The position numbers and the translations under genes were made by a program. The notes under the pieces were generated by a model. It was not told the origin of the DNA and did not search any database. It saw only the letters and a program-made list of their open reading frames with translations. Positions 4,000 through 41,400 of a stretch of DNA of 53,254 nt are shown in pieces; position 1 is the stretch's first letter; the number at the start of each line of letters is the position of its first letter. Source of the DNA: a virus (lineage: Duplodnaviria > Heunggongvirae > Uroviricota > Caudoviricetes); the IMG/VR virus record IMGVR_UViG_2563366998_000011, positions 1-53,254 of that record, one strand, 5' to 3'.

Positions 4000-5118
4000 T
4001 TACAAAATGGAATATTCAGGGTAATAAACAAAGCGCCCAATTTCCCCATGATCCGGGCTGTAAATAATCACCGCTGCCAGACGCCGCGACCGCCAGCCGC
4101 CATTAGTTGAATATGCGTCTTTGCCAGCTAATGTGCCGTGGTGCTCAACTATTCCAAGTGATGTTTCAACAACTGATTGATGGTGCAGATGTCCAGTGTG
4201 AGCGTAAACAGCCACAGACCTTCCGAAATCCTCCCGCCAGTCAGCTACGCAAGCAGACAATAAATTTTCCGGCTTTTTGATAGTGTGCCCGTGGTGGTAA
4301 GCAAGGAATGTTTTGCCATACTGTGTGTGGTGGACAATGGCAGGTGACACGTCAACAGTCACGCGCGGCTCATCTTCGTAAAAAGCCGCAAGCGCAGCAC
4401 GTAGCCAGATCATACCTGATTGGTCGTGATTACCGGATAATACCTGGATCTCGACATCCTTATGATTTAGTAACATCTTCCCGACCGCACGCCGGACCGA
4501 CCGGATCGCCACATAAACCAGTTTTGCGTAGCGTGAATCACAATCTAAAACGTGATTACTTGATGGCGTCACTGGTAACAGGCCGTCAGTGTGAAGCACA
4601 TCACCGCCGAGAAGTAAAACAGCTTTTTCAGACATCGGAGCAGCGCCAACAGCGTAGTCAAAGAAGTCATTCAACACGCGCTCAGCGATCCCAGTATCGT
4701 AGCTCTCACCGCATTCAGCTTTATGAGCAAGCGCCCCGATATGCAGATCAAACACCGGATAAAGTGCCAGGCTTTTTTGAAAATCAATTTCAGGCACTGG
4801 CACAGCCTCCGCGCGTGGTATTTCATCAGTGAAAGCGTCGCGGGCCGCTTCCATTAGCTGTTCCATTTCTTCGCGGTCACGGGCTGTTTTAATCCAGCGC
4901 ATGATAACATTGCCGTTCTTATCGACTAGCAACGACTCGCCATTGACGCCAAAACCAGGAGCGCGGCGTGTTGATAATAAACCACGTTTCGCCAGTTTTG
5001 CGCCCAGGCGCTCGACATTGCGTTTTGACATGCCATATTTTTCAGCAATCTGCTTGTACGTTAAACCGTTGTTATATTCAGCGATCAATTGCTCATCGCT
5101 GATTTTTCTTTGCGACAT
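4000..5118 (-). CDS. HTH-domain protein with metallophosphoesterase motifs (possibly replication-associated)
   Basis: 372 aa; N-terminal HTH (LTYKQIAEKYGMSKRNVERL); motifs DLHIG, GGDVLHTDG, SGNHDQ resembling SbcD/Mre11-type metallophosphoesterases; lies between replisome organizer and helicase. Confidence 0.6.
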   Translation of the reverse strand: MSQRKISDEQLIAEYNNGLTYKQIAEKYGMSKRNVERLGAKLAKRGLLSTRRAPGFGVNGESLLVDKNGNVIMRWIKTARDREEMEQLMEAARDAFTDEIPRAEAVPVPEIDFQKSLALYPVFDLHIGALAHKAECGESYDTGIAERVLNDFFDYAVGAAPMSEKAVLLLGGDVLHTDGLLPVTPSSNHVLDCDSRYAKLVYVAIRSVRRAVGKMLLNHKDVEIQVLSGNHDQSGMIWLRAALAAFYEDEPRVTVDVSPAIVHHTQYGKTFLAYHHGHTIKKPENLLSACVADWREDFGRSVAVYAHTGHLHHQSVVETSLGIVEHHGTLAGKDAYSTNGGWRSRRLAAVIIYSPDHGEIGRFVYYPEYSIL

Positions 5119-5152
5119 AATGTTAATTCCTCAGGTTTACATTTTGTATACA

Positions 5153-6208
5153 TCAGGATATAGCACAACGAAAAAACTTGCACCCCAAATAATCCTCAAT
5201 GCGTTTTTGTCTTATCGCATCGCTTTTTGCTTGCCGTTTGTGATGTGATTCATCAATTTCTACAGCAATATTATTCACAAGATCGTAGCCATCAATAAAA
5301 TACTTGTTGCCAGCAACATTAACAGGATATTGCCTTATTAATTTAACTCCTTTTAGTTTTTCGTACATAGTTAATCCAGCATGTTCATAACGCTTCCTAA
5401 TCATATTTTTACAATTATAACTCATTTCTGATAATTTCTCGTCACATTCCCTTTTTATTTCCTCAATTACATTCTTGTCGCTTTTTAATTCAATAAAGTT
5501 TTCTATGTCGTTATAATTACCGCATTCAAAATTATTACTAAGACCTTTATTTTGACCCCATGTATGATACTTTTCCGCTATCTTATCGCTAATATATCTT
5601 TCATATCCATAATTTGTTTTAACTGTAAAATATTCAATATTTAAATCAATGGTAAACTCATCATTATTAAGATGTTCATTTAAAAACGTATCTGGATCTG
5701 CAATATCGCTTGAATGAAACAACCTTACCCATAGTTTTTCTATTGATACTCCGCGAGTAACGAACAACCATTTTTTATACTTTTCAGCATCTTCCTTTGA
5801 CACATACACAGAGCATCGCCCGGGAGTATCACTAGTTTCAACATAGTTGTTACACCATAAAACATAATTATAAGCATAAGGACTATCTTTTCTGGTATTA
5901 TTTGAATATTTATTAAACACATCTTGTAAATCAACTAATCCACAAGATTCAATAACTGGCTTAACCCAATTTTCATTATATTCATAATGTCTATATTTAC
6001 CAGGTGTAACGAATCTAATAAACGTTATAGGTGTGATATACACATCATCACCATCAATAATAAAATCCTTGTATTCCTCAAATCCGTAAAGATCAGAGTA
6101 TTTAACAAATGATTTAAGCCTATCGATTTCAAGTTCAGAAACAAGATTATTAACAGATAGTAATTGCGTGTCCTTACAATTTAGTTTCACATGATAAGTG
6201 GCAATCAT
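5153..6208 (-). CDS. AT-rich moron protein with C-terminal restriction-endonuclease-like (DUF559/Vsr-like) domain
   Basis: ORF 5153..6289; likely start MIATYHV at 6208 with AAGAGG RBS; visibly AT-rich versus flanks; C-terminus YFIDGYDLVNNIAVEIDESHHK...DAIRQKRIEDYLGCKFFR fits the DUF559 endonuclease pattern. Confidence 0.55.
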   Translation of the reverse strand: MIATYHVKLNCKDTQLLSVNNLVSELEIDRLKSFVKYSDLYGFEEYKDFIIDGDDVYITPITFIRFVTPGKYRHYEYNENWVKPVIESCGLVDLQDVFNKYSNNTRKDSPYAYNYVLWCNNYVETSDTPGRCSVYVSKEDAEKYKKWLFVTRGVSIEKLWVRLFHSSDIADPDTFLNEHLNNDEFTIDLNIEYFTVKTNYGYERYISDKIAEKYHTWGQNKGLSNNFECGNYNDIENFIELKSDKNVIEEIKRECDEKLSEMSYNCKNMIRKRYEHAGLTMYEKLKGVKLIRQYPVNVAGNKYFIDGYDLVNNIAVEIDESHHKRQAKSDAIRQKRIEDYLGCKFFRCAIS

Positions 6209-6361
6209 ATGTACCTCTTTTCTTAATTTTATATATAACGCCTCAGACGTGCTACAACGCAAAAATCCCACCGCGTAACCCGTTTGCACAGGTTGCAGTG
6301 TCTTATTGCGTCAGAGGCGCTCTCAGGTGGCTAATTTTTGATTTACAGGCTGGTATGAAGG

Positions 6362-14092: not shown

Positions 14093-14326
14093 ATGGCCTT
14101 ATTCAATATGTCAGAGCCGCAATTTAACGCCGTAAAGACTGCCGCCCGCGCCGCGCTTTCGGCCTGCAAAGCGGAGGTAGAGAAGAACGGCTACAGCGAT
14201 AAAGCCACGCGGCTGATACTCGACAAGCATTATCGCAAGGTCGCCCCGCTAATCAGCATTGAGCGTTTTGTGTGGTTGGTGGGGTATCTGAATAACCGCT
14301 GGGGGACGGAGCAGGATTATTTCTAA
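14093..14326 (+). CDS. Hypothetical protein
   Basis: ORF 13934..14326; likely start MALFNMSEPQ at 14093. Confidence 0.4.
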   Translation: MALFNMSEPQFNAVKTAARAALSACKAEVEKNGYSDKATRLILDKHYRKVAPLISIERFVWLVGYLNNRWGTEQDYF

Positions 14327-14336
14327 GGGGGACGCA

Positions 14337-14876
14337 ATGAAAAATGATTACGGCGGCAGTCATACGCCGAAAGAAATAAAAGACCTATGGCAGACGCCGA
14401 AACCTGTTTTTAGAGGAATGGATCGGGAATTCGAATTCGTCGCGGACGTGGCGGCAAACAAGGCAAATGCATTAGTTCCGCGATATATAACCGAAGAAAT
14501 GAACACGCTTAATTACCCGTGGGGAGCGGTGGCGATGCCTGGTGAATATGTCTGGATGAATCCACCATATTCTAATCCGGGACCATTCGTTGATAAGGCG
14601 GCGTTTGAACACCACCGAAATCATATTGGCTGTGTAATGTTATTGCCAGCCGACACTTCTGTTAGTTGGTTTATGAACGGCGTGGAGACGGCAAATGAAT
14701 GCCGATTAATCACGCGCGGGCGGCTGGCGTTTATTAATGCCGCGACGGGTAAACCAGCAAGCGGAAACAATAAGGGGAGCTTGTTCTTGATCTGGCATCC
14801 ACGGTGCAGACATGAATGTATTTTCACGCAGATAACACGTAAAGAGCTATATGCAAGAGGTGCAGATAATGACTAA
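14337..14876 (+). CDS. dam: Phage-type DNA N6-adenine methyltransferase (Dam family)
   Basis: 179 aa; catalytic NPPY motif (WMNPPYSNPGPF); size and layout typical of small orphan phage Dam. Confidence 0.8.
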   Translation: MKNDYGGSHTPKEIKDLWQTPKPVFRGMDREFEFVADVAANKANALVPRYITEEMNTLNYPWGAVAMPGEYVWMNPPYSNPGPFVDKAAFEHHRNHIGCVMLLPADTSVSWFMNGVETANECRLITRGRLAFINAATGKPASGNNKGSLFLIWHPRCRHECIFTQITRKELYARGADND

Positions 14877-15201
14877 GGCAGCAGATTTATTGAGACTTGC
14901 AGCGGAAACCATAGAGCAAAGAGGTAAACAAAACGGCTACGACAAAAAAGAGGAAAAATCAGCGCCAAAAATAGCCACTATTTACAACGCTAAGAAGGGA
15001 GCAGATTTAACCCCGCTTGATGTATGGGATCTGCTAATTTGTCTCAAGGAGGCGCGTTTAGAGGCCATTTTAAGCAATAAATCAGATCCGACAGACACGC
15101 TAATTGATTTGATTAGCTATAACGCGCTAAAAGCGGAGCAAATATTAACGGAGCGGGAGGAAGCACAAAGAAAGAAACGGGCTGTTTTGATATACCGTTA
15201 A
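14869..15201 (+). CDS. Hypothetical protein
   Basis: ORF 14851..15201; likely start MTKAADLL at 14869 after AAGAGG. Confidence 0.4.
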   Translation: MTKAADLLRLAAETIEQRGKQNGYDKKEEKSAPKIATIYNAKKGADLTPLDVWDLLICLKEARLEAILSNKSDPTDTLIDLISYNALKAEQILTEREEAQRKKRAVLIYR

Positions 15202-15339
15202 ATTGCGGCTGTAAGAATGCCTCAATACCAGGCGACTTAATCGCCAGCAGCAAGGTAACGCTAAATAGTGTCCTTGCAAACAGGCTTGATGGTAAGTGTG
15301 ATAACGAATCACTACTACGCGCGGCGGGGTATCATAAAA

Positions 15340-15843
15340 ATGGAAAGGGTGACAATTGACAGGTTATTGGCCTGCATTTATGTCGCCGTTTTCGTGATCA
15401 TTAACCTTATTGTTAACCACTGCGGCCCGTGGGTAATTCCGATCACCACGGTAGCCGCCGTGTGCGTCAATATGATGATCCGTGACTTCCTGTTATATGA
15501 CGGCGGCCTGAAATGGTCGGCTACAACATGCGCCGCCGCTGGCGCAATCACGGTGCTGATAAACTACGATGCCGGGATGGTGGCGATCGCGTCATTCGTC
15601 GCGGTTGTTTCCGGTGCGCTTATTTCTGGCGGTGTTTACCGGATTTTACCTGGCGATTTCGATTCAAAACGCTGGCCTGCGAATATAGCGTCCGCCATTG
15701 GTGATGCGTTAATTTTTCCCACGCTATCGTTTATGGCATTTATGCCGGAAATATCAGCTATGCAATTCATCTCAAAAATGGCGGCTGTAACGGTGATCAC
15801 TATCATCATTCGTCGCTATTTTACGTTCGAGGGTAGGAAATGA
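15340..15843 (+). CDS. Multi-pass membrane protein, tentatively YhhQ/VUT-family (queuosine-precursor transporter-like)
   Basis: ORF 15268..15843 (start uncertain: 15289 or 15340); 4-5 hydrophobic helices; RWPANIASAIGDALIFPTLSFMAF resembles E. coli YhhQ RWWLAPTASTLFGNVSDTLAFFFIAF as recalled; stop overlaps next start. Confidence 0.45.
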   Translation: MERVTIDRLLACIYVAVFVIINLIVNHCGPWVIPITTVAAVCVNMMIRDFLLYDGGLKWSATTCAAAGAITVLINYDAGMVAIASFVAVVSGALISGGVYRILPGDFDSKRWPANIASAIGDALIFPTLSFMAFMPEISAMQFISKMAAVTVITIIIRRYFTFEGRK

Positions 15844-16604
15844 GTGGGCTTAGAAATTGGGTGGTGTGGTCGCTGTACGACGGCAGCGGGTACGCCGTTA
15901 AAGATTGGGCCGACGCTGGCTATAAGTGTTATTGTTTCAATTATGACGGCGCTAATCATGGCGATTATGAAGGCGTCAAGATCATTCATCCTAACATTGA
16001 ATATGTCAACGTATGGATTGACAGCCATTTCCTGGTAATGTTCTCCCCTGAATTGTCTGTTTATCCAGATCCTGACATTATCCTGGGCTTTCCTCCGTGC
16101 GACGATCTTGCGGTGTCCGGCGCTCGTTGGTTTTCAAGCAAGCGTGAAAAAGATCCTTACTTCCAGCAGAAGGCGGCATACAACGCAAAACTGGTAGAAA
16201 CGCTTGCTGACATGTACCACGTCCCGTGGATGGTGGAAAACCCGGTTGGAGCACTGTCAACGTTATGGCGTAAGCCGGATTTCATTTTTAATCCGTGCGC
16301 TTACGGTGGCTACCTGCCGGAAGATGATAAGCATCCAGCTTTCCCGGAATACATCGCCGACCGCGACGCCTACACGAAGAAAACTTGTATCTGGTGCGGC
16401 AACGGATTTAAACAGCCGCTATTTCGGCCTGTACCAATGCCTGATGAGTGGGAAGATAGTAAGCAGCACGCGAAGTTAGGCTGGAAGTCGAAGCGCACTA
16501 AGATGATCCGCTCACTCACGCCGCGAGGATTCGCCCGTGCTGTATTCCTGGCTAATGACCGGGCAATCACGCGGACTACTCTTAACCGCGTTTTACCGGA
16601 TTGA
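15840..16604 (+). CDS. Short DNA (cytosine-5)-methyltransferase-like protein
   Basis: 254 aa; motif I-like LYDGSGY, motif IV GFPPCDD, motif VI MVENPVG, motif IX-like IRSLTPRGFARAVF; unusually short variable region. Confidence 0.6.
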   Translation: MSGLRNWVVWSLYDGSGYAVKDWADAGYKCYCFNYDGANHGDYEGVKIIHPNIEYVNVWIDSHFLVMFSPELSVYPDPDIILGFPPCDDLAVSGARWFSSKREKDPYFQQKAAYNAKLVETLADMYHVPWMVENPVGALSTLWRKPDFIFNPCAYGGYLPEDDKHPAFPEYIADRDAYTKKTCIWCGNGFKQPLFRPVPMPDEWEDSKQHAKLGWKSKRTKMIRSLTPRGFARAVFLANDRAITRTTLNRVLPD

Positions 16605-16764
16605 TGTTTACAAAATGGCGTCATTGTGTGATGCGGATCACATAATGGCGCTTTATTGTTTGTTCGCATGTATCCGTTTTGTATACTTCAAACAAACAAA
16701 ATGCTCTTTAAAAATCCGGTAACGCTGAAATGCGTAAAAATCACCTGAAAAAGGAGAGAGCATT

Positions 16765-38347: not shown

Positions 38348-40690
38348 ATGGCTACCAGTGTAGGTACAATTTATTACGAAGTTGATGCGAAAACTGGTCA
38401 ACTTCTCGTTGCACAACGACAGGCAGACCAGGCCTTTGATCGTATAGAGCGCGGCGCAAAACAGGCTGACCGCCAGGTAAACACCCTGAAAACATCCATC
38501 AAGGCACTGACCAGGGTTATCCATCTGCTAATTGCTGCGGAGGCTGTGCGCCAATTTATGGATATGGCGGAGCAAGCAAAAATGCTTCGCGTAAAAATCA
38601 AAATGCTTACGGGCGATGCGGAGTCCGCCGGACGGGTTTTCGACGGCCTGAAAGCAATATCCAGGGAGACGGGGCAGAGCCTGAAAGATACTGGCGAATT
38701 ATGGCAAGGCCTGGCTATCTCACTAAAAAACACCTCCGCTACGGAAGGGCAATTGCTTAACCTGGTTGGCACTATTCAGAAAATGGGTGCATTAGGCGGC
38801 GCGTCAGCGGAACAGATGTCTAACTCAATGCGTCAATTCCGTCAGTCTATCGACGGCGGTGTTCTTCGTGCCGAAGAATTTAACAGCCTGCTTGAAAATA
38901 CGCCGACCATCGTACAAACAATGGCCCGCCATATGGGATTATCAATGGGCCAGTTCCGCGCCGAAATGCTGGACGGCAAGATCACGGCTGAAAGGATGGT
39001 TAACGCAATACAGGCGGCTACGCAGGAAACAAACGATAAGTTTGCTCAGTTGCCGCGCACATCCGGCATGGCTATCAATGAGCTTAAAGTAGAAATTATG
39101 GGCCTTGTTGAGCAGTTGGATGATCTTTTTGGCGTGTCAGATGGCGTTGTTTCAGCTATCGACTTGATCACGAAAGGCGTTAAAGGGCTTGGCGATGGCG
39201 CTAAATTCGCTAAAACCTGCTTCGACACACTCAAAACGGCTGGTAGCGAATTTATCGACATGTTTGATGATGTGGCTGTTAAGGCTGGAGAGGTGGCAGA
39301 GAAGATCATCGCAATGGTGACGCCAATCAAGGCGCTAATGGATGGCTATAAATGGATGAAGGAGGTAGTAGGAGAGCAAACCGACGAATATAACAGCAAC
39401 TACGAGAAGAAATACGGGAAGACCGTTGGCAAGGTCATGCAACTACAGGATGATCTGACCGCAGCAATCCAGGCTACAGAAGAAGCAAGGAAAAATGAAC
39501 AGAATGCTGCCAATGACGGAGCGATTACCGGATTCGACAAGCCAGTAGACAAGCCGAAAAAACAGAAAAAAGAGAAGAAATCGGAAGCTGATCGGCTTGG
39601 TGACAAAGGTATAAGCGTTTCTGATCAGTACAACAAAGACGCCGCCGCCATGCGCAAAGCGTTGGAGAACGGCAAGGCCATTGATGCTGCATTTGCCCAG
39701 GGTAAAATCACGCTCCTTGAGTACCGCGCCGCGCAAAAAGGGATCGGCAAGGAACTGAAAGAAGAATTAGCACAAATTCCGGTAGATGAATTGCGTGATA
39801 AATGGTCACAAATAGTAAGCCCGATGGATCAGCTAAAAGGCGAAGTTGACCCCATCCAGCAGGCGCAAAATGAATGGGCCATCCGTAAGCAAATGCTTAT
39901 AGACCTGGGCGCTACTGAAGCGCAACAGAAACAGGAATTGTTAGCCTATGAGCAACAGATCCGCGATCTGAAATGGGAACAATGGCAGGCGCAAAGCGAC
40001 ACAAACGGCCTTATCGGTGATTGTGTTAATGGCCTTAAAGGCGGAATGAGTAATGCGCTTGTTGGCCTGTTAAACGGCACTCAATCATTGAGTGATGTTT
40101 TTGCTAACTTAGGAAGCAATATACTCGGCAATATCGGTAACAGACTCTCAGACATAGCTGCAAACTGGATAGCAGATCAGATCATGATGGAGACACAAAG
40201 CAAGGCCACGCAAACAAGTACAACAGCAAGCGCGGTAGCAGCTCAGGGAAGCATTGCTGCGGCGGCGGCCCCAGCAGCGGCGGCAACTGCGGCGTCAACT
40301 GGCGGTAGCTGGGCGGCGGCTGGTTCGGCGGCGCTCACTGCGATCATGTCGCTGGCTACGTCAATTTTCGGCGGCGGTCGCTTTAATGGTGGTAGCGTCA
40401 TTGGTGGTAATATGTACCGCGTAGGGGAACACAACAGGCCGGAGCTATTCCAGACATCTAACGGCAATCAATATATGATCCCTGGCGAGAACGGCAGAGT
40501 TATTCCGGGCCGTGATATTGGCGGCGGTGGCGGTATTAGTATGCCTGTCAGTATCAGCATTCAGACCACGAACGGATTCAGCGACGAAGACAGCCGCAGA
40601 CTTGAATTAACAATGGAACGTGTAGCCATGAAAATGATAACAAGGGAATCTCAAAGACCAGGCGGAATGTTGCAACCTCGCCGCAAATAA
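38348..40690 (+). CDS. H: Tail tape measure protein (lambda H-like)
   Basis: 780 aa; alpha-helical with Gly/Ala-rich C-terminal region; precedes M-L-K-I-J. Confidence 0.85.
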   Translation: MATSVGTIYYEVDAKTGQLLVAQRQADQAFDRIERGAKQADRQVNTLKTSIKALTRVIHLLIAAEAVRQFMDMAEQAKMLRVKIKMLTGDAESAGRVFDGLKAISRETGQSLKDTGELWQGLAISLKNTSATEGQLLNLVGTIQKMGALGGASAEQMSNSMRQFRQSIDGGVLRAEEFNSLLENTPTIVQTMARHMGLSMGQFRAEMLDGKITAERMVNAIQAATQETNDKFAQLPRTSGMAINELKVEIMGLVEQLDDLFGVSDGVVSAIDLITKGVKGLGDGAKFAKTCFDTLKTAGSEFIDMFDDVAVKAGEVAEKIIAMVTPIKALMDGYKWMKEVVGEQTDEYNSNYEKKYGKTVGKVMQLQDDLTAAIQATEEARKNEQNAANDGAITGFDKPVDKPKKQKKEKKSEADRLGDKGISVSDQYNKDAAAMRKALENGKAIDAAFAQGKITLLEYRAAQKGIGKELKEELAQIPVDELRDKWSQIVSPMDQLKGEVDPIQQAQNEWAIRKQMLIDLGATEAQQKQELLAYEQQIRDLKWEQWQAQSDTNGLIGDCVNGLKGGMSNALVGLLNGTQSLSDVFANLGSNILGNIGNRLSDIAANWIADQIMMETQSKATQTSTTASAVAAQGSIAAAAAPAAAATAASTGGSWAAAGSAALTAIMSLATSIFGGGRFNGGSVIGGNMYRVGEHNRPELFQTSNGNQYMIPGENGRVIPGRDIGGGGGISMPVSISIQTTNGFSDEDSRRLELTMERVAMKMITRESQRPGGMLQPRRK

Positions 40691-41400
40691 ACTAAACCCC
40701 GGTGCAATGCCGGGGTTATTTTTGTGCACAGAAAACCCCCAGCTAGGCTGGGGGTTCCGGAAAGCTTTCAGCTTTAAGCCAGTTATTAAAACCCCTTTTG
40801 ATTTGTTAAAACACCTTGCGGTCTGGCAACTGCAAGTGTCAAACAAGAAATCAAAAGGGGGTCCCAATGGGGAACGAAAAGAGCTTAGCGCACACCCGAT
40901 GGAACTGTAAATATCACATAGTTTTTGCGCCAAAATACCGAAGACAGGTGTTCTACAGAGAGAAGCGTAGAGCAATAGGCAGTATTTTGAGAAAGCTGTG
41001 TGAGTGGAAAAGTGTACGGATTCTGGAAGCTGAATGCTGTGCAGATCATATCCATATGCTTGTGGAGATCCCGCCCAAAATGAGCGTATCCGGGTTTATG
41101 GGATATCTGAAAGGGAAAAGCAGTCTGATGCTTTACGAGCAGTTTGGTGATTTGAAATTCAAATACAGGAACAGGGAGTTCTGGTGCAGAGGGTACTACG
41201 TCGATACAGTGGGTAAGAACACGGCGAAGATACAGGATTACATAAAGCACCAGCTTGAAGAGGATAAAATGGGAGAGCAGTTATCGATTCCCTATCCGGG
41301 CAGCCCGTTTACGGGCCGTAAGTAACGAAGTTGGATGCAAATGTCAGATCGTGTGCGCCTGTTAGGGCGCGGCTGGTAAGAGAGCCTTATAGGCGCATTT
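40691..41400 (+). mobile_element. IS200 insertion sequence (boundaries approximate)
   Basis: contains IS200-type tnpA; left-end hairpins at 40697-40715 and 40733-40756; about 0.7 kb; inserted between tape measure and gene M. Confidence 0.65.
40867..41325 (+). CDS. tnpA: IS200/IS605-family transposase TnpA
   Basis: ORF 40816..41325, likely start MGNEKSLAHTRWNCKYHIVF; HxH motif (HIHMLVEIPP) and catalytic Tyr region (GYYVDTVG); matches Salmonella IS200 TnpA as recalled. Confidence 0.9.
   Translation: MGNEKSLAHTRWNCKYHIVFAPKYRRQVFYREKRRAIGSILRKLCEWKSVRILEAECCADHIHMLVEIPPKMSVSGFMGYLKGKSSLMLYEQFGDLKFKYRNREFWCRGYYVDTVGKNTAKIQDYIKHQLEEDKMGEQLSIPYPGSPFTGRK

Follow-up and report, generated by a model that had tools for sequence, protein, structure and literature searches.

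The block of genes from dam to dcm in the window (the whole stretch of 53,254 nucleotides that was analyzed) is best explained, with a probability of roughly 0.75, as two independent anti-restriction methylases accompanied by a VUT/YhhQ-family transporter which has lost its DpdA partner, with the overlap of the transporter and methylase genes being a matter of packing. The window is a mEp021-like (mEpimmI) prophage of E. coli, that is, a temperate coliphage. The block most probably forms a segment of the delayed-early right operon, in which the two orphan DNA methylases would act independently of each other and, most likely, both protect the phage from restriction.

Organization of the dam-to-dcm block

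The gene order from 14337 to 16604 is Dam, DUF6378, VUT, and MTase, and the features of the block are the following:

14337..14876, + strand: phage orphan Dam-type N6-adenine DNA methyltransferase, 179 aa (Pfam PF05869, TIGR01712, PHROG 111)
14869..15201, + strand: DUF6378 protein, 110 aa from the RefSeq start (Pfam PF19905 at 1.3e-07, above cutoff; RefSeq annotation)
15340..15843, + strand: short VUT/YhhQ-family membrane protein, 167 aa, putative 7-deazaguanine-precursor transporter (PHROG 4899, relatives, AF2 model)
15840..15843, + strand: ATGA stop/start overlap of the transporter and MTase genes (direct sequence reading), with GAGGGTAGG just upstream
15840..16604, + strand: short phage Dcm-like DNA C5-cytosine methyltransferase, 254 aa (catalytic Cys87 in PPCD, Glu133 in ENP, conserved Lys180 and Lys181)
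16617..16652, + strand: terminator-like hairpin with a T-rich tail (pattern scan), 13 nt past the MTase stop, at the end of the dam-to-dcm block

All ORFs reported in the first-pass annotation were recovered at their positions in the ORF listing. The genes are not chance ORFs, as each of them has many homologues and a low dN/dS across the mEp021-like phages (membrane protein 0.042, MTase 0.057, Dam 0.056). In RefSeq, both the C5 gene and the membrane-protein gene are named “hypothetical protein”, a label that can now be replaced by Dcm-like C5 methyltransferase for the former and VUT-family protein for the latter.

The upstream gene had been called a Dam-type N6-adenine methylase, and the profiles agree with this assignment (PF05869 at 2.4e-52, TIGR01712 at 7e-42 and above its cutoff, as well as a match to PHROG 111). 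Its expected product would be N6-methyladenine. At the other end of the block, the annotated terminator TERM_4 of mEp021 is located at the position equivalent to the hairpin, and in mEpimmI t4 and nutR2 have been placed downstream of the methyltransferase gene (PMC11893012). The order Dam-DUF6378-VUT-MTase is kept in relatives down to 52–54% VUT identity, which could have a functional meaning beyond common ancestry. The window contains 121 CCWGG sites, close to the expected number, and its GATC count is also as expected; these counts have no bearing on specificity.

The short Dcm-like methyltransferase

The 254-aa protein, previously described as C5-MTase-like, shows a class I SAM-methyltransferase fold with C5-MTase topology and the respective catalytic motifs. 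The motifs quoted in the first-pass annotation (LYDGSG, GFPPCDD, MVENPVG, IRSLTPRGFARAVF, and RWPANIASAIGDALIFPTLSFMAF) are all present in the translations. In an alignment of 33 sequences, motifs I, IV, and VI are found in canonical order (DGSG, P86-C87, and E133-N134-P135), and residues G15, S16, C87, E133-N134-P135, and K180 are invariant. A reading of this protein as a DpdA in disguise was rejected, since it does not resemble Phleasolo gp70 or PEAT2 gp19 in sequence and folds like a C5-MTase.

Direct Pfam and NCBIfam scans provided nothing usable for either the MTase or the membrane protein, and both were placed in families through PHROGs, relatives, and structure. In detail, PF00145 gave no hit to the window MTase even at E ≤ 10 and thus stayed below its gathering threshold, but it hit 8 of the 33 family members at E ≤ 0.01 (best 1.3e-06). 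The MTase matches PHROG 757 at 4.6e-87 over residues 5–247. Its profile produced a weak match against the PDB, with E values of ~0.4 (DNMT3B and HaeIII) and only over the span of motifs I–IV. The search for homologues retrieved 2,302 sequences; the family is found in 1,516 phage records and is labeled Dcm-like in many phages. PHROG 757 also covers the “Dcm-like C5 cytosine methyltransferase” of BASEL phages and the dcm of phage Tls.

The first-pass annotation considered the protein unusual for its short variable region and for its PCD and ENP motifs, a view that does not hold at the level of the family. ENP, with P instead of V at the third position of motif VI, is invariant, and the variable region is short family-wide. 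Among the best 120 family hits, the catalytic Cys is followed by T in 113 cases and by D in six. Compared with canonical C5-MTases (PF00145; M.HhaI, M.HaeIII, and DNMT3A/B), which are ~70–100 residues longer, the target-recognition region of the window MTase is minimal.

The closest functional reference is the Dcm of the near-identical phages K42 and KarlJaspers (Bas06). The window MTase is 59% identical to KarlJaspers Dcm over 234 residues (E 2e-100), and the two share the short length, the C/E/KK residues, the DNMT3-like fold, and PHROG 757. Its C87, E133, K180, and K181 align with C82, E128, K175, and K176 of K42 Dcm, which are the residues mutated in the inactive enzyme (bioRxiv 10.1101/2023.08.16.553469). 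In the same work, K42 Dcm alone in E. coli led to 5mC, as detected by LC-MS, and was the trigger of retron Ec86. Judging from this homologue, which is the basis for the predicted activity and specificity of the window MTase, the enzyme would be expected to produce 5-methylcytosine from SAM on replicating phage DNA; the tested member of the family acts at CCWGG.

There are differences between the two enzymes. The window MTase carries PPCD where the tested K42/KarlJaspers enzyme has PPCT, its stretch before motif IX reads EWEDSKQHAKLG instead of DNPGWAKTG, and it bears an 18-residue C-terminal tail, unlike the K42/KarlJaspers Dcm. The phages also differ, the former being temperate and mEp021-like and the latter lytic Drexlerviridae. 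Within the clade, the 37-residue stretch before motif IX is found in two sequence types, which is an indication that the target may differ from CCWGG. If the window MTase methylates the same msDNA site as K42 Dcm, then these prophages may trigger retron Ec86 while gaining protection from restriction.

The transporter and its missing DpdA partner

The longest ORF of the membrane protein extends from 15268 to 15843, and the RefSeq start, an ATG at 15340, results in 167 aa. The resemblance to YhhQ-type transporters noted earlier was upheld through the relatives of the protein and its fold. The window protein itself scores 12.9 bits (E 0.15) and falls short of the Vut_1 gathering threshold of 27.2 bits, but 26 of the 30 members of its alignment match Vut_1 at E ≤ 0.001. 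The protein matches PHROG 4899 at 2.9e-46, and the best 120 profile hits all carry PF02592, at 32–40% identity to it. It is also 31–35% identical to phage proteins named “VUT family”, and PEAT2 gp18 scores 38 bits to Vut_1.

The AF2 model (pLDDT 85) contains five long helices, whereas six TM segments are predicted in the mEp021 annotation. In BFVD, the top-ranking fold is that of a “putative vitamin uptake transporter”, with a probability of 1.0 and a TM score of 0.60. All 26 family-invariant columns, shared with the PF02592-positive relatives, are kept in the window protein (e.g., R48-D49, N115, D122, F126-P127, and Q142-F143-K146). In the mEp021-like phages, 43 of 43 copies are intact, which together with the low dN/dS speaks for a functional gene.

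The relation to E. coli YhhQ (b3471), cited in PMC6884629 (Zallot 2017) as a transporter of preQ0/preQ1, is distant. Both belong to the same Pfam family by way of the relatives, and their C-terminal halves align, including the N..AS..D..F..AF segment. The hhalign match of the VUT profile to E. coli YhhQ is weak (E 0.001 at a probability of 20%) and confined to the C-terminal half, and the E. coli protein is longer (221 aa vs. 167 aa). No hits were obtained for the VUT profile against the PDB.

Modification of DNA with 7-deazaguanines has DpdA as its recognized signature protein (PMC10516641). The absence of DpdA from the window, as stated in the first-pass annotation, was confirmed in several ways. 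A tblastn search with three DpdA-like proteins showed nothing significant in the window, a 34-sequence HMM run over all window ORFs with filters off reached a best E of 0.4, and PHROG and Pfam scans revealed no DpdA among the larger unassigned window ORFs. In the left arm of mEp021, none was found by annotation or HMM. No queuosine-pathway gene was located in the window, and no further sign of a DpdA-based system appears, by annotation only, in the examined regions of mEp021 and of the closest prophage in RefSeq.

The distant relatives of the transporter do accompany DpdA genes, as had been stated for phage YhhQ. From the 36 distant viral VUT loci, 31 have a DpdA-like (PHROG 887) neighbor. In two others, the neighbor shows a weak TGT match (25.2 bits, Pfam cutoff 26.3) together with a strong DUF6884 match; in one, a DpdA-like ORF runs off the contig end, and in the remaining two the contig ends beside VUT. 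The VUT-DpdA pair was also located in six separately fetched phage records. The DpdA-like profile, when searched against the PDB, gave only chance chitinase hits.

The transporters of the phage 7-deazaguanine clusters (PEAT2 gp18 with gp19, the Drexlerviridae VUT-DpdA pairs, and CAjan yhhQ) belong to the same short VUT subfamily of ~160 aa, at 31–37% identity to the window protein. Like the latter, they retain all family-invariant residues and have a stop/start overlap with the neighboring gene, but this neighbor is DpdA in the clusters and a C5-MTase in the window. The origin of the transporter most likely lies in other phages' VUT-DpdA modules, the DpdA partner having been lost. As every family-invariant residue is kept, import of a 7-deazaguanine-type base (preQ0, preQ1, or queuine) is probably still its function. 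The present benefit of the transporter may lie in feeding the host tRNA-queuosine pathway or a host DpdA.

The transporter–methyltransferase junction

The MTase start overlaps the membrane-protein stop, in agreement with the first-pass annotation, through the ATGA at 15840–15843. The wider suggestion that the methyltransferase depends on the transporter found no support, because K42 Dcm makes 5mC alone and VUT persists where the MTase is deleted or replaced. In detail, the MTase slot of two loci (L016 and L028) is filled by an HNH endonuclease gene which uses the same ATGA overlap, and in another (L041) the MTase is cleanly deleted and VUT is kept. In phage Phc, the MTase is placed ~4 kb from the VUT-DpdA pair, on the opposite strand. 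Records with the MTase family exceed those with the window VUT type ~70-fold (1,516 vs. 21 phage records). A link of the PCD variant to VUT adjacency was rejected, because the PCT-type relatives L097 and L098 also adjoin VUT. The pairing looks like gene packing rather than a functional link, and the overlap would reflect tight packing at a slot of gene swapping, not the supply of a substrate. Of the findings that had been named as speaking against a joint function, half were thus made: the MTase has the look of a conventional enzyme that does not depend on the gene upstream, whereas the membrane protein stays inside the YhhQ/VUT family.

It is extremely unlikely that the two genes form a DNA-modification system in which an imported substrate or cofactor is placed onto cytosine, giving a non-methyl product. 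The ATGA overlap would fit such a system, as would the VUT-MTase adjacency, which is shared by 41 of the 44 close relatives and by the relatives at 52–54% VUT identity, and the fact that the MTase occupies the position held by DpdA beside VUT in several other phages. However, the 59%-identical homologue produces 5mC on its own in E. coli, the MTase occurs in ~1,500 phage genomes that lack the window VUT type, VUT remains where the MTase is lost or exchanged, and the PCD variant shows no correlation with a neighboring VUT. Moreover, the nearest VUT relatives are DpdA-linked, which indicates guanine-analogue substrates and not cytosine adducts. An extended form, in which VUT and the Dcm-like enzyme jointly make a non-methyl C5 cytosine modification and Dam-DUF6378-VUT-MTase is a four-gene modification module, is hardly to be expected at all. 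It is also very unlikely that the MTase-like protein of this sub-clade is inactive, or that its target is other than the C5 of DNA cytosine, because D has replaced T beside the catalytic Cys. The D in place of the usual T of PPC[T] characterizes the sub-clade of the window, but this position varies among active C5-MTases in the alignment (mostly Q, and N in DNMT3) and close PCT-type relatives are found in the same slot. All other invariant MTase residues are present, the gene is intact in 14 of the 14 full-length, gap-free copies analyzed, and it evolves under purifying selection, as its dN/dS indicates.

A VUT-family protein with a new role in this clade, which is no longer a 7-deazaguanine importer but acts on another substrate, or as a membrane factor for superinfection exclusion or host manipulation, is improbable, even if several observations are in its favor. 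The window has neither DpdA nor a queuosine-pathway gene, and the protein is just 31–40% identical to every DpdA-linked relative, yet highly conserved within the clade. E. coli already possesses YhhQ, which makes a second preQ0 importer look redundant, and in phage CAjan the deletion of the phage yhhQ did not change the preQ0 modification (PMC7544227). On the other hand, the retention of 26/26 invariant columns argues against a change of function, and the gene belongs to the early lytic operon, which is under antitermination, instead of occupying a moron site with a separate promoter. No evidence points directly to another substrate. A somewhat better candidate, still tentative, is a DpdA-independent role of the phage VUT, for instance in adjusting the queuosine of host tRNA, or the 7-deazaguanine pool of the host, in the course of lytic growth.

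A strongly conserved transporter of the queuosine-precursor type in a phage clade without DpdA is a point of real curiosity. If the transporter has a role of its own, phage 7-deazaguanine transport would serve something besides DNA modification.

The DUF6378 gene, the fourth of the block, was overlooked in the first-pass annotation. A profile search against solved structures in the PDB gave only a chance hit and no match for its product. DUF6378 was rejected as a common component of VUT-DpdA modules: among the fetched loci it never occurs beside the VUT-DpdA pairs of other phages, and the 46 loci which contain it are all mEp021-like. In all mEp021-like relatives, it is positioned between dam and the transporter gene.

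The gene block and its phage

Region 14300-16700 of the window is 99.9% identical to a prophage of E. coli strain M15 and 84-91% identical to the temperate coliphages mEp021, mEp010, mEp013, mEp044, mEp515, mEp554, and MagusPhagus. mEp021 and its kin form the "mEpimmI" group of Nus-dependent non-lambdoid phages (PMC11893012). The window extends from just past the position of the mEp021 integrase gene to the tail fibre genes and thus covers most of the phage genome.

The first-pass annotation described a DNA-modification island at 14337-16604. All of its ORFs exist at their places, and the peptide motifs quoted from them were all found in the translations. Its inventory was right for Dam, the membrane protein, and the methyltransferase (MTase), including the overlap of the last two genes, but a DUF6378 gene was overlooked.

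Features of the block from dam to the MTase gene
14337-14876, + strand, Dam methylase (PF05869 at 2.4e-52; TIGR01712 above cutoff)
14869-15201, + strand, DUF6378 gene, between dam and the membrane-protein gene
15268-15843, + strand, membrane protein, longest ORF (167 aa from the RefSeq start, an ATG at 15340)
15840-15843, + strand, ATGA overlap of the membrane-protein stop and the MTase start, read from the sequence
15840-16604, + strand, MTase-like gene, 254 aa
16617-16652, + strand, terminator-like hairpin 3′ of the MTase gene, from a pattern scan

The hairpin corresponds to the annotated TERM_4 of mEp021 and also agrees with the t4/nutR2 region of that phage (PMC11893012), so the block from dam to the MTase gene is assigned to the N-antiterminated delayed-early operon, where it precedes ninG, rusA, and Q.

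In mEp021-like phages the DUF6378 gene always lies between dam and the gene for the transporter; some relatives have a version lengthened at the C-terminus by about 50 aa, which overlaps the start of the transporter gene. PHROG and PDB searches gave no clue to its function, the PHROG labels being uninformative and the PDB search without a match.

The methyltransferase as a member of a phage Dcm-like family

Scans of the 254-aa protein against Pfam and NCBIfam gave no match, even at E≤10, whereas PHROG 757 ("DNA methyltransferase") matched it at 4.6e-87 over nearly its full length. Homologues number at least 2,302 in the protein database, mostly of 227-250 aa, and by tblastn the family is present in 1,516 of 50,697 phage records, often labeled "Dcm-like C5 cytosine methyltransferase" or "dcm". 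Carriers include Drexlerviridae, Kagunavirus, rV5-like, and other Escherichia, Klebsiella, and Salmonella phages.

One relative is partly characterised. In a study of retron Ec86, escape mutants of phage K42, whose genome is 95% identical to that of KarlJaspers (Bas06), had lost a 711-bp dcm gene; its product was modelled on DNMT3A, with C82A/E128A/K175A/K176A as the inactive mutant, and LC-MS showed 5mC to be placed on the msDNA when a plasmid supplied the wild-type gene alone (bioRxiv 10.1101/2023.08.16.553469). The effect of mutating the CCWGG site of the msDNA was tested there by a phage plaque assay on cells with the mutated system (Fig. 1F; bioRxiv 10.1101/2023.08.16.553469). The KarlJaspers genome has a 711-bp gene of the same Dcm-like label, and its product is 59% identical to the window MTase (E 2e-100). 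The residues C82, E128, K175, and K176 align with C87, E133, K180, and K181 of the window protein. Because of this identity and these aligned residues, the window MTase is placed, on its sequence, as a new member of this known phage family, with ordinary 5mC as its predicted output. The stretch before motif IX is of two sequence types within the clade, so target specificity could differ from that of the K42 enzyme.

In an alignment of 33 sequences, the invariant positions include G15 and S16 (motif I), C87 (motif IV), E133-N134-P135 (motif VI), and an R-S-L-T-x-R-G-x-A-x-A block near the C-terminus. The ENP that had been regarded as an oddity is therefore not peculiar to the window protein, and the suggestion of an unusual methylase is not supported. 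The residue following the catalytic Cys is T in 113 and D in 6 of the 120 best matches, with D marking the sub-clade of the window protein. A link of D with adjacency to the transporter gene was considered and rejected, since T-type relatives in two viral loci (L097 and L098, with 81% and 61% MTase identity) also adjoin it. Profile ties of the family to canonical C5 enzymes are weak: PF00145 matches 8 of the 33 members, and the PDB profile search gave E of about 0.4 across motifs I-IV.

The transporter and its neighbors

Alone, the membrane protein scores 12.9 bits against Pfam Vut_1, below the cutoff of 27.2. Phage proteins annotated as VUT family are 29-35% identical to it in alignments that cover at least 83%, and mostly about 90%, of the protein, and one of them, PEAT2 gp18, exceeds the cutoff. 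With a profile of the phage relatives, over 5,000 proteins were retrieved; PF02592 is present in every one of the 120 best matches, which are 32-40% identical to the window protein. Vut_1 matches 26 of the 30 members of the final alignment, all 26 invariant columns of which are retained in the window protein. The predicted structure is all-helical, with a "putative vitamin uptake transporter" as top viral fold match. Taken together, the profile, alignment, and structure evidence supports VUT membership well through the relatives, in keeping with the YhhQ-type label given initially. The profile alignment to E. coli YhhQ is weak and confined to the C-terminal half, and a function identical to that of YhhQ is presumed.

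The ORFs of 80 viral loci with transporter relatives were scanned with HMMs for MTase, VUT, and DpdA-like proteins. The MTase gene lies directly downstream of VUT in 41 of the 44 close (mEp021-like) loci, and in none of the 36 distant ones (31-37% VUT identity). In 31 of the latter, the neighbor is a DpdA-like gene (PHROG 887, "queuine tRNA-ribosyltransferase", E down to 3e-86). One more has a DpdA-like ORF interrupted by the contig end, and in two the contig ends immediately beside VUT. The VUT-DpdA pair is found in all six separately fetched phages (Phleasolo, PEAT2, Phc, LHE71, RCIP0319, and Tbat1_6). No DpdA gene was detected in the window by tblastn, an HMM run on all its ORFs, or PHROG scans of the larger unassigned ORFs, and none is annotated or found by HMM in the left arm of mEp021. 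Since relatives show the pair and the window lacks DpdA, the original statement that phage YhhQ-type genes accompany DpdA, absent here, holds.

In two of the 36 distant loci, both metagenomic contigs (L080:163-1440 and L081:40-906), the VUT neighbor is a 425-aa protein with a weak TGT match (PF01702 1e-05, 25.2 bits against a cutoff of 26.3) and a strong DUF6884 match (3e-44), which may be a different DpdA architecture.

A modification enzyme using an imported substrate, as first proposed, would tie the transporter to the MTase, and the evidence argues against this. This VUT type is outnumbered about 70-fold by the MTase family, and the characterised homologue is active alone (bioRxiv 10.1101/2023.08.16.553469). 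VUT is intact in a locus with an exact, clean deletion of the MTase gene (L041), and in two others (L016 and L028) an HNH endonuclease occupies the slot with the identical ATGA overlap (175 aa, L016:4501-5028 and the same position in L028, PHROG 99 at 1e-51; slot equivalent to window 15840-16519). Gene replacement seems to have a hot spot at this position, 3′ of the transporter gene. In Phc, the MTase lies on the opposite strand from the VUT-DpdA pair.

In several Drexlerviridae-type genomes a Dcm-like gene is located within a few kb of the pair: Phc (L005:1022-1705), LHE71 (L092:184-899, broken into two ORFs), and another locus (L060:4226-4822). The VUT-MTase adjacency of mEp021-like phages could have arisen from such an early region with all three genes.

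The only mildly novel element is the conserved transporter without its DpdA partner. Its gene shows a dN/dS of 0.042, a mark of strong purifying selection, all 43 copies are intact, and the order Dam-DUF6378-VUT-MTase-NinG is maintained down to 52-54% VUT identity. DpdA is regarded as the signature of every phage that has 7-deazaguanines in its DNA (PMC10516641), and deletion of yhhQ in phage CAjan left preQ0 modification unchanged (PMC7544227). The best guess is that the gene descended from a VUT-DpdA module and that its product would still supply a host pathway with an imported 7-deazaguanine-type base; that it has taken on a new role is a reasonable alternative to such continued import.

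Other genes of the window and its relatives

The methylase set varies within the phage group, as mEp021 gp05 (L096:2836-3573), a third DNA methyltransferase of the N-4/N-6 type (245 aa) beside ninB in the left arm, has no counterpart in the window by tblastn.

Among the leftward replication genes, a 378-aa ORF (5153-6289, − strand) lies in a markedly low-GC stretch (0.32 for 5001-6000 vs about 0.45 elsewhere). Its C-terminus gives a weak match to DUF559, no PHROG family matched it, and it may be a recent acquisition with an accessory or defence role.

Just after a 780-aa ORF (38348-40690), likely the tape-measure gene as judged from the M15 annotation, a 169-aa ORF (40816-41325, + strand) matches transposase families (PHROG 2577, 4.8e-49), which suggests that the tail gene region contains an insertion sequence or what is left of one.
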